A stretch of DNA of 64,000 nt from Clostridia bacterium (GCA_900759015.1 CAAEUE010000001.1:45637-109636); one strand, 5' to 3'; shown: positions 5,508 through 60,220, counted from the stretch's first letter. A program made the numbers and translations. Notes: generated from the sequence alone by a model not told the origin.

Positions 5508-5534
5508 GGGATTTAAGGACCGTCCCCAAATCCC
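5508..5534. repeat. Dispersed palindromic element copy 1 (GGGATTTaaGGACCGTCCccAAATCCC)
   Basis: Inverted repeat GGGATTT / AAATCCC flanking a GGACCGTCC core. A partial second core (ACGGACCGTCC) lies at 5554..5564. Located at the 3' end of deoD. Confidence 0.6.
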
Positions 5535-5572
5535 TCAATCTCGAAAGAGAAAAACGGACCGTCCAAAAATTC

Positions 5573-6292
5573 CTATAATAATATTCCAGATTCTAGAGCA
5601 ATTTTAATCATTTTTGTCAATCCTTGTTCACGTTCTTCTGGTGTTGCCTGTTTGTTTATAAATTGTGAGTCAACAACAGTCATTAAACAAGCAGCTTTTT
5701 TATTTAAAAGCTTTGCGTTGTAGAATAATGCAAATGCTTCCATTTCTGCTGCTATAGGTTTTATATTTTTTGGAATTCTATTAAAGAATTTTTTTGGGTC
5801 TGTCATATAAAAATCTACAGCGTCTGTACAAACAGTATTTCCTTCTGTTACTTTTATATCAGAGATGTCAGCGACTTGTTTTATTATAGAATTAAGTTTT
5901 TTATCTGCTGAGCAAATATGACAATCATCATTATTAAATGTAAGAGCATAATTTCCTTCTGTATATACGTCATCTGCAAGAACAACATCAAATAAGTCTA
6001 ATTCTTTAATATATCCTCCGCAAGAGCCAATTCTTATAATGTTTTCTACATCATAAAATTTATATAATTCATATGAATAAATTCCAACACTTGGCATTCC
6101 CATACCATGTGCCATAACAGAAATTCTTTTTCCTTTATATAAGCCTGTATATGCTAACATATTTCTAACAGAATTAACTAATCTAGCATCTTCTAAAAAA
6201 TTTTCTGCTATATATTTTGCACGTAAAGGATCTCCTGGCATAATAACAGTTTTTGCGAAATCACCGATTTCAGCTTCATTATGTGGCGTCAT
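5573..6292 (-). CDS. deoD: Purine nucleoside phosphorylase DeoD-type
   Basis: 239 aa, MTPHNEAEIGDFAKTVIMPGDPLRAKYIAE...GMGMPS...RIGSCGG, typical of the PNP/UDP phosphorylase family. Confidence 0.9.
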   Translation of the reverse strand: MTPHNEAEIGDFAKTVIMPGDPLRAKYIAENFLEDARLVNSVRNMLAYTGLYKGKRISVMAHGMGMPSVGIYSYELYKFYDVENIIRIGSCGGYIKELDLFDVVLADDVYTEGNYALTFNNDDCHICSADKKLNSIIKQVADISDIKVTEGNTVCTDAVDFYMTDPKKFFNRIPKNIKPIAAEMEAFALFYNAKLLNKKAACLMTVVDSQFINKQATPEEREQGLTKMIKIALESGILL

Positions 6293-6458
6293 ATTTTAAC
6301 CTCCTAAATATTTAAATTTTATATTAGTATATCATAATACTAAGAATTTATAATATTGTGATATATAAATGTAACATAAAAGTAATATTATGGAAATATA
6401 CAAATTAATGCAAAAAATGTATAATATTTGTAGAAAAAGTGAAAAGGAGAGAGAAAAT

Positions 6459-7142
6459 ATGTGGACATGTTTGTATTTAAGCCATATTGTAGTAATTATA
6501 ATGATTATAATAGCTATTTTAGGAATTATATATGGAATAAGTCAAAAAAAGATTAAGGTTTATCAAGTTATTATAATATTTTTATTTTGTGTAATTTCAA
6601 TGGCATTAGTTACAGGAGTAACATCAATGCAATGTATAGATGATTTAAATAGTGATATAGATTCAGCTACAGAAACTATTAAGACAGATTATTGGACATA
6701 TAATTCTGATGAGATGTCAATAATGGATAGTTATGTGGAGGGTTATACTAAACTAGTTGATTTAAAAACAGGAAATTTAGTTGCTGTTAAGGATGAAGCA
6801 GTATCAACAGGAAAGCCAGTAATAGATTTAAATAATAAAGAAGAGGCAGATGCAGAATGCCAAGCAATAGATATACAAGATGAATTAAATGCTACAGATG
6901 ATTATTTAATTACTTTGGATTCAAAAGAGTTCATTAAAGCAACAGATAATATTTACTATATAACTTATGATTATACATATACTAGTACAGAAGATAATTC
7001 AGAAGAAAAAGGAAAAGTGTACTATATTGTAAGTAGTGACAATCAAATTAAAACTATTGTTATGACAAGCATTAATAATGAAGAAAAAGAAGCTGAATTT
7101 GAAGAAAGAGTATTAGGAATTATTAATACAATGGATTTATAA
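6459..7142 (+). CDS. Hypothetical membrane-anchored protein with acidic extracellular domain
   Basis: ORF track 6390..7142. The internal ATG at 6459 follows an AAAGGAGAGAG RBS. One or two N-terminal TM helices followed by a D/E/T/Y-rich domain. Confidence 0.5.
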   Translation: MWTCLYLSHIVVIIMIIIAILGIIYGISQKKIKVYQVIIIFLFCVISMALVTGVTSMQCIDDLNSDIDSATETIKTDYWTYNSDEMSIMDSYVEGYTKLVDLKTGNLVAVKDEAVSTGKPVIDLNNKEEADAECQAIDIQDELNATDDYLITLDSKEFIKATDNIYYITYDYTYTSTEDNSEEKGKVYYIVSSDNQIKTIVMTSINNEEKEAEFEERVLGIINTMDL

Positions 7143-7157
7143 AAGGAGGTAAAGTTC

Positions 7158-7547
7158 ATGTTAATAGCATTAAATTTTGTTTTCGATATCATAGTAGCAA
7201 TTTTAGTATATGAGTACTTTAAAAGAGATAAAAAAATTGAAGCATTTGCTGCTGCTGTTATTATAAAAGTTGCATATTTCTTATCATCAACTGTAATTAC
7301 AGGGCAATTTAATTTTATAGGGTTTATAATATACATATTAGTAATGATATGTGTTGCACGATTATTTATTATAATAGTTCAAGAAATTTATAAGACGGAT
7401 TTACATCCTGTATTATTTATAATAGTTACAGCATTAATTGGGGCATTAATAATGTCATTGATAGGAGAAATTTTATATACATTATTATTTAAATTAGTAA
7501 CTTTATTTGTTGCTACATTCCAATATTCTTTAGATAAAATTTCTTAA
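7158..7547 (+). CDS. Small hypothetical membrane protein
   Basis: 129 aa with a strong AAGGAGGT RBS and 3-4 predicted TM helices. Confidence 0.55.
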   Translation: MLIALNFVFDIIVAILVYEYFKRDKKIEAFAAAVIIKVAYFLSSTVITGQFNFIGFIIYILVMICVARLFIIIVQEIYKTDLHPVLFIIVTALIGALIMSLIGEILYTLLFKLVTLFVATFQYSLDKIS

Positions 7548-7599
7548 GTACTTGAATCAAAAAAACTAATGTGATACAATGCAATAAATTAATTAAAGT

Positions 7600-58670: not shown

Positions 58671-58722
58671 TTGAATAAATTTGAATAAAATACAAAAGAT
58701 AATATAATAAGGAGATGATTTC

Positions 58723-58869
58723 ATGTTTAAACAAATTGCTTGGAATACCTTCAAAAAAACAGGAAATATAAATACATTTATGGAATTTAAACAACTAAAA
58801 GATTTAGAAAAGAAAATAGAGGAAGAAAAAAATGGGAACAATAAAGACAAAAGGAATTATATTAGTTGA
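58723..58869 (+). CDS. YqzL-like small protein (48 aa)
   Basis: MFKQIAWNTFKKTGNINTFMEFKQLKDLEKK... between era and recO, as yqzL is in Bacillus. RBS AAGGAG. Overlaps the recO start. Confidence 0.55.
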   Translation: MFKQIAWNTFKKTGNINTFMEFKQLKDLEKKIEEEKNGNNKDKRNYIS

Positions 58870-59560
58870 ACATAATATGGGTGATTTCGATAAAATGTTA
58901 ACAATGTTAACACCAGGGTTAGGGAAAATTTCTTGTGCTGCCAGAGGGGCGAAAAGATTTAGAAGTTCGCTCCTTGTTGGTAGCCAATTTTTATGTTTTG
59001 GAGATTATGTATTATATAAAACAAATGCTACTTATTATATAAATTCTTGTGAGCCAATAGAGATTTTTTATAATATAAGAAAAGATTTAAAAAAATTAGA
59101 ATATGCATCTTTTATAACTAAAATAATTATTGATGTTACAAATGAGAATGAAAATTCATATAGGATATTACAATTATATTTAAATACATTGTATATGATA
59201 TCTGAAACAGAAAAAGATTTAGAATTTATTTTAGCGATATTTAAAATAAAATTGGTGAGTATACTTGGTTTTGCACCCAATGTTAGAACTTGTGGAAATT
59301 GTAATAAGACAGAAAATTTAGAGTTTTTTAGTTTGAAATCAAATGGGTTTAAGTGTAGTATTTGTGGAAAACAAGATACGAGTTGCATTCATATGCAAAA
59401 ATCAACAATGCAAGCTATAAAATATATTGTAATGTCTCCTCCTAAAAAAATATTTTCTTTTAATATAGGGGAAGAGTCAGCAAAAGAACTAGAAATAATA
59501 GCTAAACTATATCTAAATGATAAGCTAGAAAAAGATTATAAAATGGAGAATATTTTTTAA
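58832..59560 (+). CDS. recO: DNA repair protein RecO
   Basis: 242 aa with an OB-fold N-terminus and a C4 zinc motif (CGNC...CSIC). Confidence 0.9.
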   Translation: MGTIKTKGIILVEHNMGDFDKMLTMLTPGLGKISCAARGAKRFRSSLLVGSQFLCFGDYVLYKTNATYYINSCEPIEIFYNIRKDLKKLEYASFITKIIIDVTNENENSYRILQLYLNTLYMISETEKDLEFILAIFKIKLVSILGFAPNVRTCGNCNKTENLEFFSLKSNGFKCSICGKQDTSCIHMQKSTMQAIKYIVMSPPKKIFSFNIGEESAKELEIIAKLYLNDKLEKDYKMENIF

Positions 59561-59660
59561 TAGTGTATAAAAAAACAAAATAAGCTTGAAAAAAAGCCTA
59601 CAACCATATATAATAAATTTACAACAAAAGAAAGCAAAATAATTGAGAGGAGAGATTTTT

Positions 59661-60182
59661 ATGAATATAAAAGTTGTTGGAAAGGATTTAGAAGTAACAG
59701 ATGCAATAAGAGATTATGCAGAAAAGAAAATGGAAAAATTAACAAAATACTTAGATGATTTTGACGGAACAGTTACTATAAAAGTAGAAGGAAATGAGCA
59801 AATAGCAGAAGCAAGAGTAGCTTATCAAGGTATTACATACAAAGCAGTAACTGCACATAAAGACTTATATGCTTCTATAGATAAGAATATAGATATACTA
59901 GAGGGACAAATAAGAAAAACAAAAACAAAGAGAGAAAGATTAAATAAAGAAGCAACAATAAGAGCAGCTCAAGAAGTAGAACAAACAGAACCAGAAAACG
60001 AGATAATTAAAGAACTATATTATGAAATAAAACCAATGACACCAGAAGATGCTAAATTAAAACTACAAGAAAATAAAGGAAATACTTTCCTAACATTTGT
60101 TAATTTAGAAAATGGTAAAGTAAATGTAATATATAAATTAAAAGATAATAAAAATTATGGTTTAATAGAACCAGAAGCATAA
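59661..60182 (+). CDS. hpf: Ribosome hibernation promoting factor (long HPF)
   Basis: MNIKVVGKDLEVTDAIRDYAEKKMEKL RaiA/HPF N-domain plus a C-terminal dimerisation domain. Confidence 0.9.
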   Translation: MNIKVVGKDLEVTDAIRDYAEKKMEKLTKYLDDFDGTVTIKVEGNEQIAEARVAYQGITYKAVTAHKDLYASIDKNIDILEGQIRKTKTKRERLNKEATIRAAQEVEQTEPENEIIKELYYEIKPMTPEDAKLKLQENKGNTFLTFVNLENGKVNVIYKLKDNKNYGLIEPEA

Positions 60183-60187
60183 GCAAT

Positions 60188-60220
60188 AGGGATTTTGAGG
60201 ACGTTCCTCAAAATCCCTAT
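60188..60220. repeat. Dispersed palindromic element copy 5 (TAGGGATTTTGAGGACGTTCCTCAAAATCCCTA), near-perfect 33-bp palindrome
   Basis: Best-preserved copy, between convergent hpf and the SASP gene. Confidence 0.65.

Follow-up and report, generated by a model that had tools for sequence, protein, structure and literature searches.

What is a family of near-identical hairpins doing at the ends of genes in an AT-rich genome, and why are its copies so alike? The question is raised by a stretch of 64,000 nucleotides from a Clostridia bacterium (GCA_900759015.1, CAAEUE010000001.1:45637-109636; the whole stretch is called the window below), in which an initial annotation, made from the sequence alone, had noticed five copies of a palindrome of about 30 bp and had proposed a repetitive extragenic palindromic (REP)-like element or a protein or RNA recognition site, and not independent terminators. 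We hold it to be probable that the five hairpins are members of a REP-type family of uncultured gut Clostridia of 27–28% GC, that the family goes together with a transposase resembling those tyrosine transposases that are associated with REPs (RAYTs), and that its members double in the window as orientation-specific terminators. What leads us to the REP–RAYT part of this reading is the combination of a short palindrome with many extragenic copies, its restriction to one lineage, its occurrence singly, in doublets and in clusters, and the presence, between inverted copies of it, of a RAYT-like gene in single copy.

The repeat unit and its copies in the window

The outer arms of the palindrome, searched for as GGGATTT-N8-22-AAATCCC, match the window five times (the cores in Table 1), against a chance expectation of 0.00 matches from 100 dinucleotide shuffles of the window. 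A covariance model (R1), trained on 46 copies from other genomes and run over the whole window with its filters off, recovers the same five copies at 41–56 bits (E 1e-11 to 7e-17), and pattern, shuffles and model thus agree on all five places given in the initial annotation. A sixth copy was not found by R1 in the window, the next-best match being the second hairpin after groEL at E=0.09.

The unit is an asymmetric imperfect palindrome, [T/C][A/C]GGGATTT(n)GGGGACGKTCCT(n)AAATCCC[T/G][A/G]. On one strand it reads GGGATTT(n)GGGGA-CGK-TCCT(n)AAATCCC, with two G opposite two T, and on the other strand these positions are A.C mismatches. Its core of 27–29 nt folds (z-scores -3.8 to -7.8) into a stem of 12–17 bp, in which the two G.T are counted, capped by a loop of 3 nt: the outer arms GGGATTT/AAATCCC are invariant, the G-rich inner arm GGGGA pairs with TCCTT via the two G.T, and the loop is CGK. 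The initial annotation had described a palindrome with a core GGA(C/A)CGT(C/T)CC; GGGGA-CGK-TCCT with conserved G.T wobbles describes it better, and the units have an orientation, copies 1 and 4 being on the minus strand. R1 scores the sense strand of every copy 13–33 bits above the antisense strand, and the sense RNA is more stable than the antisense RNA by 3.6–6.9 kcal/mol in four of the five, copy 5 being a perfect palindrome. Read in the sense direction, copy 1 and copy 2 differ by one base. The window has a GC content of 27% and carries its genes mostly on the plus strand.

The same asymmetric core is found in 137 distinct copies from all loci compared (numbered with an L below). Arms and core are conserved as sequence and the stem does not covary, which bears out the earlier impression of a conservation beyond mere hairpin potential; the G.T pair is retained in 45 of 46 aligned copies. 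Variation is limited to one or two closing pairs outside the arms and is complementary there (A-T or C-G at -1/+1, T-A or C-G at -2/+2), with Watson–Crick pairs in 65% of copies at -1/+1 (53% when shuffled) and in 47% at -2/+2 (30% when shuffled). These pair counts come from arm-anchored counting and from an ungapped 35-nt subset; a MAFFT alignment of the 137 units, which has end gaps, was not used for them. As for organization, an inverted partner lies no more than about 14 nt away for 12 of the 137 units (L042, L065 and L095 among them), 49 have a direct partial unit next to them, and 76 are single.

A half-copy had been reported at 5554–5564, beside copy 1. It does contain the core GGACCGTCC, a pattern with four matches in the window where 0.12 are expected, and it lies in a layout of partial unit, T-run and full unit which recurs in L021, L064, L087, L108 and L110; alone, it is not significant (R1 E=5). 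It is probably what is left of a direct doublet. Adjacent units elsewhere are 0–8 nt apart and have no unique spacers between them, and a CRISPR reading of the clusters was rejected on these grounds.

Table 1. Repeat units and associated hairpins in the window; fold energies are for the sense and antisense RNA.
Feature	Position (core)	Sense strand	Basis or sequence	Location	Following sequence	R1 score (bits)	Fold energy (kcal/mol)
REP-like unit, copy 1	5504..5538 (5508-5534)	minus	pattern + R1	39 nt past stop of PNP_UDP_1 phosphorylase gene (5573..6292, minus; Pfam)	TTTTTGT	minus 56.3, plus 23.1	-18.7 vs -12.1
Degenerate partial unit	5554..5566	minus	core GGACGGTCC, then GTTTTTCTC	immediately 5' of copy 1 in the sense direction			
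REP-like unit, copy 2	13399..13433 (13403-13429)	plus	pattern + R1	50 nt past groEL stop (11716..13353, plus)	TTTTAT	plus 53.5, minus 24.2	-17.1 vs -10.2
Second hairpin after groEL	13443..13478	undefined	GGATTTAAAGTCGAAACTTTGAATCC between A-run and T-run			12.5, strands about equal	-13.5
REP-like unit, copy 3	32815..32850 (32819-32846)	plus	pattern + R1	starts 3-7 nt past stop of cyclophilin-type PPIase gene (32048..32812, plus)	TTTTTTG	plus 41.4, minus 26.4	-22.1 vs -18.5
REP-like unit, copy 4	34153..34188 (34157-34184)	minus	pattern + R1	9-13 nt past stop of SPFH/Band 7 gene (34197..35156, minus)	TTTTTTAT	minus 47.3, plus 27.8	-22.5 vs -18.4
REP-like unit, copy 5	60185..60221 (60189-60217)	plus	pattern + R1; perfect 17-bp palindrome	starts 3-7 nt past stop of ribosome hibernation factor gene (59643..60182, plus)	TTTAT	plus 41.0, minus 28.3	-24.7 vs -25.2 (symmetric)

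Distribution and turnover in related genomes

The repeat family is abundant and lineage-restricted (CAG:354, UMGS1570 and relatives), and occurs in single units as well as in direct and inverted doublets. Scanned against one genome for each prokaryotic species, a strict version of the motif that fixes 20 bases matched at least 115 genome stretches, almost all of them from about 40 related metagenome-assembled genomes (MAGs), so that the family is not limited to the few copies first seen. Among the matches listed, the MAGs are labeled Clostridium sp. CAG:354, UMGS1570, UMGS1531 or 'uncultured Clostridia/Clostridium' and come from human, chicken, rabbit and other guts, except for two that clearly fall outside the group, namely Clostridium sp. 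CAG:510 and a MAG of Nitratifractor. In UMGS1570, strict matches are spread over 13 or more separate 8-kb blocks, and in ERR3414582_bin.23 over 8 or more; the unit density in the window, about one per 13 kb, corresponds by extrapolation to about 80 copies per Mb. Because locus L092 of UMGS1570 is 93% identical to window positions 28361–36357, and several repeat-carrying MAGs are 90–96% identical to one another, the window belongs to the CAG:354/UMGS1570 group. An exact-protein look-up with the TTG-started open reading frame (ORF) of the hibernation factor (HPF) gave no match, and a look-up with groEL gave strains of the same species. The strict motif had no matches in the plasmids scanned, and three in 2.9 million viral contigs (L138–L140, IMG/VR). 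One of the three, L138, shares its flanks with the chromosomal locus L082 and could be either prophage or chromosomal DNA that was misassigned.

Repeat presence differs between species at orthologous sites. Two cases lie inside operons: L091 has two units in its groES–groEL spacer, antisense to the operon, where the spacer in the window is 26 nt long and has none, and after groEL it has an ordinary AT-rich hairpin instead of a unit; in L016, two coupled genes, directly adjoining in the window, are kept apart by two antisense units together with some 50 nt of AT-rich sequence. Between close species, the unit is conserved in 73 of 98 orthologous-site checks. Most units are kept in species pairs that are 85–99% identical. 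Within clusters, half-units come and go, and the clusters decay more rapidly than the sequence on either side; unit-level indels are seen at 85–95% identity. Of the window copies, copy 2 is identical across eight contigs of the same species, the orthologue of copy 4 in L092 differs by 1 nt, that of copy 3 in L092 is altered, and the PPIase orthologue in L066 (74% identity) also has a unit downstream.

Small, dispersed units of this kind might be taken for miniature inverted-repeat transposable elements (MITEs) or for the ends of a DDE-type insertion sequence (IS), moved by a conventional transposase, the more so as inverted pairs lie 150–300 bp apart in L018, L020, L041 and L073 and a polymorphic IS3-family element is found near copy 1. 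In L018 and L020, however, the inverted pairs arise because two convergent genes have a unit apiece, the IS3 copy of L002 is inserted in another hairpin at a distance of 80 bp and has no sequence in common with the unit, direct target-site duplications are absent at the units, whose flanks are complementary instead, and no DDE transposase is enriched in the loci. We therefore consider such an origin very improbable.

A transposase gene between inverted copies

Related genomes, including a congener at about 90% nucleotide identity, carry a syntenic RAYT/TnpA-REP-like gene that is flanked by inverted copies of the repeat. In L105, an ORF of 261 aa (273–1058) lies between a sense-plus unit (83–118) and a sense-minus unit (1069–1104). 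Overall, eight loci from related genomes show a Y1 transposase gene with flanking inverted repeats, the repeat being the present one in six, a variant of it in one and a different hairpin in one; inverted units of the present family surround the gene in L105, L125, L128, L131/L133 and L136/L137, and L013 shows a single flank. The genomic surroundings were compared for homologues of the L105 protein at 59, 53, 46, 45 and 42% identity. The first four lie at the same site, between a small ferredoxin gene (fer4) and genes for 2-oxoacid:ferredoxin oxidoreductase (POR), and each is enclosed by inverted units or unit clusters of this repeat. The gene is single-copy and syntenic in related genomes, and since four homologues sit at the one fer4–POR site, it behaves as a vertically inherited gene. 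The clusters beside it are built in the style of the dispersed copies elsewhere, with TCCTAGGA-linker doublets in L128 and GGGATAAAGGGACA third units in L131.

Two homologues carry repeats of their own. In L134, the 42% homologue lies between perfect inverted copies of a 30-nt repeat, TGAACTTTAGGGACGGACCTTAAAAGTTCA (1247–1276 and 2391–2420), in which the core GGGACGGNCC is kept and the outer arms are changed on both sides with pairing retained (TGAACTTT/AAAGTTCA). The L134 repeat suggests a structural role for the outer stem and recognition of the core by the enzyme; a compensatory change of the outer stem with an unchanged core would thus point to the part of the repeat that is recognized. 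A distant Y1 paralogue (35% identity) in L111 has a different, GGGGAC-containing hairpin, GTCCCCACTGGTTCCGGGTTTCTTTGGGGAC, on both sides (1702–1760 and 2850–2880). Fragments of GTCCCCACTGGTTCCGGGTTTCTTTGGGGAC also follow units in L081.

L105 and L125 differ in a further respect. Their adjacent oxidoreductase genes are 98% identical, whereas the transposases are 59% identical as protein and 76% as DNA, which indicates that the transposase locus evolves, or is exchanged, much faster than its surroundings. Relative to L125, L105 has about 5.6 kb extra between the transposase and oxidoreductase genes.

No other protein family is enriched near the repeats when the 877 ORFs of the loci are clustered, only the Y1 transposase. 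This bears on the possibility that the hairpin is the recognition site of an RNA- or DNA-binding host factor (a 3'-UTR regulator, or a nucleoid or gyrase site) and that such binding conserves its sequence. Conservation of sequence instead of pairing would suit a site of this type, as would the fact that partial units keep GGGATTTnGGGGAC without forming a hairpin, and E. coli REPs bind IHF, gyrase and Pol I (background cited in PMC6006769). Yet the clustering yields no candidate binding protein, no Rfam 15 family corresponds to the repeat (a permissive scan over copies 3 and 4 gave chance hairpin matches of at most 23 bits, far below the cut-offs), and the inverted copies around the transposase gene would be left unexplained. 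As the whole explanation a host-factor site seems decidedly unlikely; as an added function it is compatible with a REP–RAYT system.

The transposase

The L105 protein matches the Pfam domain Y1_Tnp with 40 bits. Among NCBIfam models, 'REP-associated tyrosine transposase' scores highest, with 66.7 bits where the trusted cut-off is 80, compared with 17 bits for IS200. It has 566 homologues, all of those among the matches listed having a Y1_Tnp domain. In an alignment of 19 homologues the HuH motif (H61-A-H63) and Y121-x3-N125-P126 are invariant, and Y---NP is the signature of class 2 (TnpA-REP) (Quentin et al. 2018, PMC6006769). A search of the PDB with the single L105 sequence gave no match; with a profile of the alignment, 4ER8, the E. 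coli TnpA-REP, was the sole match. For the AlphaFold model of the protein (pLDDT 82.6), Foldseek likewise ranked 4ER8 first (E 7.6e-7, with a TM of 0.70 across the full target), followed by the transposases of IS608 and ISDra2, about 500-fold weaker. HuH motif, Y---NP motif and the first rank of 4ER8 by both sequence profile and fold thus assign the protein to the RAYT/TnpA-REP class and not to IS200.

Two features set it apart from the E. coli enzyme. The homologues are 255–263 aa long and, in the AlphaFold model, residues 182–260 form a C-terminal helical domain; the C-terminal 80 or so residues give weak matches to sigma-70 region 4 and helix-turn-helix (HTH) models (E 0.009–0.8). In the alignment with 4ER8, the residues with which the E. 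coli protein reads GTAG, W94 and Q95, are replaced by F and by K, S or N in the clostridial protein.

The units at gene ends

The initial annotation had placed the copies in intergenic 3' regions and several of them before T-runs. Both statements can be sharpened: each of the five units starts 4–50 nt past the stop codon of a gene on its own sense strand, and all five, not only several, are followed by a T-run in the sense direction. Their hairpins, at -17 to -25 kcal/mol, are among the most stable of the roughly 30 intergenic terminator-like hairpins in the window, the other 25 or so sites with hairpin and T-run having unrelated AT-rich stems, so that the likeness of the five is not that of a shared simple terminator consensus. 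In both convergent gaps that hold a unit, the gene on the opposite strand has an unrelated hairpin of its own, at about 5404–5435 for the plus-strand gene 4527..5363 facing copy 1 and at about 34113–34137 for the plus-strand aminotransferase gene facing copy 4, which fits units working in one direction only. Judging from position, orientation, stability and T-tails, the window units most likely act as intrinsic terminators of the upstream gene. The exclusion of independent terminators from the earlier proposal is not supported by these features, and REP-like and terminator readings are complementary: the units appear to be both.

For the family as a whole, context was examined for 139 units, with ORFs in the loci called by a simple procedure. 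Only 5 of the 139 lie inside called ORFs. Gaps between tandem genes hold 49 units that share the orientation of the genes and 24 that are antisense (p=0.005, binomial); convergent gaps hold 38 units, i.e. 32% of placed units compared with 12% of all gaps, and divergent gaps hold 8 (7% compared with 11%). The median distance from the stop codon of a co-oriented gene to the unit is 9 nt, both intra-operon insertions (L091 and L016) are antisense, and 37 of 137 units have at least six A upstream. In at least 10 loci (e.g. L018 1040–1050) the TAG stop of the upstream ORF is at the edge of a unit or inside it (GGGATTTAGGG). Some genes may thus owe their stop codon to the repeat, though with ORF calls as simple as these such cases could be artefacts.

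Could the units then be ordinary intrinsic terminators and nothing else, inherited vertically or copied by local recombination, with the transposase merely next to its neighbors' terminators? All five window copies look like canonical terminators, and the conservation of units at most orthologous sites of close species (73 of 98) agrees with vertical inheritance. At the transposase gene, too, the left-hand unit is always sense and follows the upstream gene, and the right-hand units of L128, L131 and L136 could terminate the convergent POR gene. In L105 and L125, however, the right-hand unit is antisense between two co-directional genes and so is not simply a neighbor's terminator, and both flanks are occupied at every fully visible homologue locus despite a density of only about one unit per 13 kb in the window. 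The L134 and L111 homologues have their own, different inverted hairpins, which indicates a pairing of transposase and repeat. Moreover, the T-tail is missing in 56% of units, units are also found inside operons, and the stem sequence is constant over about 40 species, while the other terminators of the window share nothing. Terminators alone are therefore an unlikely account of the family, and we retain the REP–RAYT reading with termination as a role of its window copies.

Families of near-identical terminators exist in other bacteria. In Neisseria, many genes end in near-identical hairpins formed by pairs of DNA uptake sequences (DUS), whose arms are also abundant as single sites, and the TRIT motif of Mycobacterium tuberculosis, from the RNIE work of Gardner and colleagues (2011), is reportedly a sequence-conserved terminator family. 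The clostridial repeat resembles both in that many genes of one genome share near-identical end hairpins; it differs in being tied to a dedicated, flanked transposase gene, which is not known of those families, and in that its single arms are not abundant. That the units are inverted uptake-sequence pairs, or another strand-oriented signal such as Chi, is scarcely credible, for all the resemblance of conserved inverted arms at gene ends to DUS-pair terminators. Of the 15 GGGATTT arms in the window 10 belong to the five hairpins, which leaves 5 solitary ones where 7.4 are expected for all occurrences; one unit per 13 kb is far below uptake-sequence density; and orientation tracks the local gene (three plus, two minus, in a region of uniform GC skew) and not the direction of replication.

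Relation to known REP systems and proposed mechanism

Pairs of REPs or REPINs with RAYT (TnpA-REP) genes, so-called REPtrons, are known from E. coli, Pseudomonas and Stenotrophomonas (Nunvar 2010; Bertels & Rainey 2011; Ton-Hoang 2012; 4ER8). The clostridial arrangement is that of a REPtron/TIRtron, with the exception of the GT[AG]G tag. As in REPtrons, the repeats are short imperfect palindromes, extragenic and mostly at gene 3' ends, lineage-specific, and arranged singly, in doublets or in clusters, and between inverted copies lies a Y1 HuH gene with Y---NP motif and 4ER8 as best structure, single-copy and vertically inherited. Unlike in REPtrons, the units have no 5' GT[AG]G and W94/Q95 are replaced, the protein is about 100 residues longer and has a helical, HTH-like domain at its C-terminus, the host belongs to the low-GC Firmicutes and not to the Proteobacteria, REPIN doublets are a minority, and the units have T-tails and gene-matched orientation. 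The REP-like reading proposed at the outset is supported by a distribution over at least 115 stretches in about 40 MAGs, a sequence-conserved stem and a RAYT-type gene between inverted copies.

Protein length, C-terminal domain, missing GTAG-reading residues and a GGGGAC-type repeat motif point to a RAYT of the kind found in TIRtrons (TIRYT; Di Nocera et al. 2013, PMC3733652), which corresponds to TnpA-Y1 subclass 2.1 (Quentin et al. 2018, PMC6006769) and to RAYT Group 1 (Bertels et al. 2017, PMC5581495). TIRtrons, too, combine a long Y1 protein with a C-terminal extension (HTH-type in TIRYT) and flanking repeats without GTAG. Their motif GGGGWSAS fits the GGGGACGK of full units at 6–7 of 8 positions and the GGGGACAC of partial units exactly, and the L111 repeat has GGGGAC; some of their repeat (TIR) families are self-complementary and form dimers or clusters, as the clostridial units do. 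Group 1 RAYTs have been reported in Clostridia (PMC5581495). In contrast to published surveys, which found no REP-like structures beside subclass 2.1 genes (PMC6006769) and only about 12 genome-wide copies of Group 1 flanking 16-mers (PMC5581495), the clostridial flanking repeat is a strong hairpin with about 80 copies per Mb, as extrapolated from the window. In the REP/RAYT literature that we searched, Firmicutes were mentioned only for the Group 1 RAYTs of Clostridia and no published REP/RAYT description for the phylum was found, nor does the manual REP table of the most extensive survey (Table S1, PMC6006769) have a clostridial entry. Canonical subclass 2.4 REPs in that table have GTAG-GGAC feet, to which TT[AG]G-GGAC...GTCC/TTCC, the inner portion of the unit, bears a likeness and no more; in the unit, the TT[AG]G tetranucleotide, which is the part resembling GTAG, coincides with the two conserved G.T wobbles.

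In the mechanism that we propose, the Y1 transposase would bind the folded single-stranded repeat and maintain or disperse the family, as E. coli TnpA-REP does with REPs, and the genome of the window would encode such a transposase outside the window. Units of the window would have been retained where they are useful, right after stop codons and with the sense strand on the coding strand. There the mRNA would form the stronger, G.U-containing hairpin followed by a U-run and thus an orientation-specific intrinsic terminator, and the unit probably serves as a 3'-end protector of the mRNA as well.

Several observations weigh against this account. The Y1 transposase is absent from the 64-kb window (tblastn best E=0.1), and its presence in the genome is presumed from congeners; the nearest genome with a demonstrated REPtron, that of L105, is within a group of sister species at about 90–93% identity. 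The canonical 5' GT[AG]G tag is absent, the foot being [T/C][A/C]GGGA with variable bases upstream. Inverted doublets are a minority in the family (12 of 137 units), and in the window there are none, its copies being singletons or a degenerate direct doublet. A clean filled-versus-empty site was not found among locus pairs 85–99% identical, the only roughly unit-sized indel among them being that of L098 versus L085, and mobility is deduced from distribution. Only 60 of 137 units (44%) have at least six T in the 10 nt downstream, and termination is therefore not a property of every unit. Finally, the comparison loci were picked by the strict form of the motif, which biases the statistics of arm and core conservation.

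REP–RAYT systems have been characterized almost entirely in Proteobacteria, and such a pair in an abundant uncultured gut clade widens their known range and would tie the repeats to a concrete host function, termination. One may tentatively go further and suppose, with more doubt than conviction, that a GTAG-independent, HTH-bearing RAYT actively maintains a large population of hairpin repeats which its Firmicute host uses as ready-made orientation-specific terminators. If so, a terminator family disseminated by a transposase would be a clear functional pay-off of the REP–RAYT partnership in small-genome gut Clostridia, and a RAYT type thought to be domesticated, single-copy and devoid of a REP population would have one. 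As a practical matter, R1 offers a means of placing the 3' ends of genes and the limits of operons in the MAGs of this group, in which the repeats likely fragment short-read assemblies and may serve as strain markers.

Other features of the window

A second hairpin follows groEL beyond copy 2 (Table 1). It could be an ordinary bidirectional terminator or a decayed unit, and its membership in the family is not established. Just 5' of copy 2, an 11-bp tandem repeat, AAATGCGAAAA (window 13381–13402), is present twice in the window and in most strains and three times in three metagenome contigs of the same species (L002, L004 and L008), the region downstream of groEL being otherwise identical.

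The IS3-family element mentioned above (HTH_Tnp_1 and rve ORFs; L002 2259–3705, corresponding to window position ~5420) is found in one strain only. Its insertion point is in the terminator hairpin of gene 4527..5363 (plus strand), in the apical portion, with an apparent AGAT duplication. An insertion targeted to the repeat, in the manner of IS1397, was rejected on account of its distance from copy 1 and its position in another hairpin.

The lowest GC content in the window (23%) is that of positions 40001–44000, and an ORF nearby, 45288–46484, clusters with recombinase-like ORFs of four other loci; this region may be a small mobile element. The glmS glucosamine-6-phosphate ribozyme, at 1730–1875 on the minus strand (87.7 bits), is the sole Rfam match in the window at the gathering threshold.

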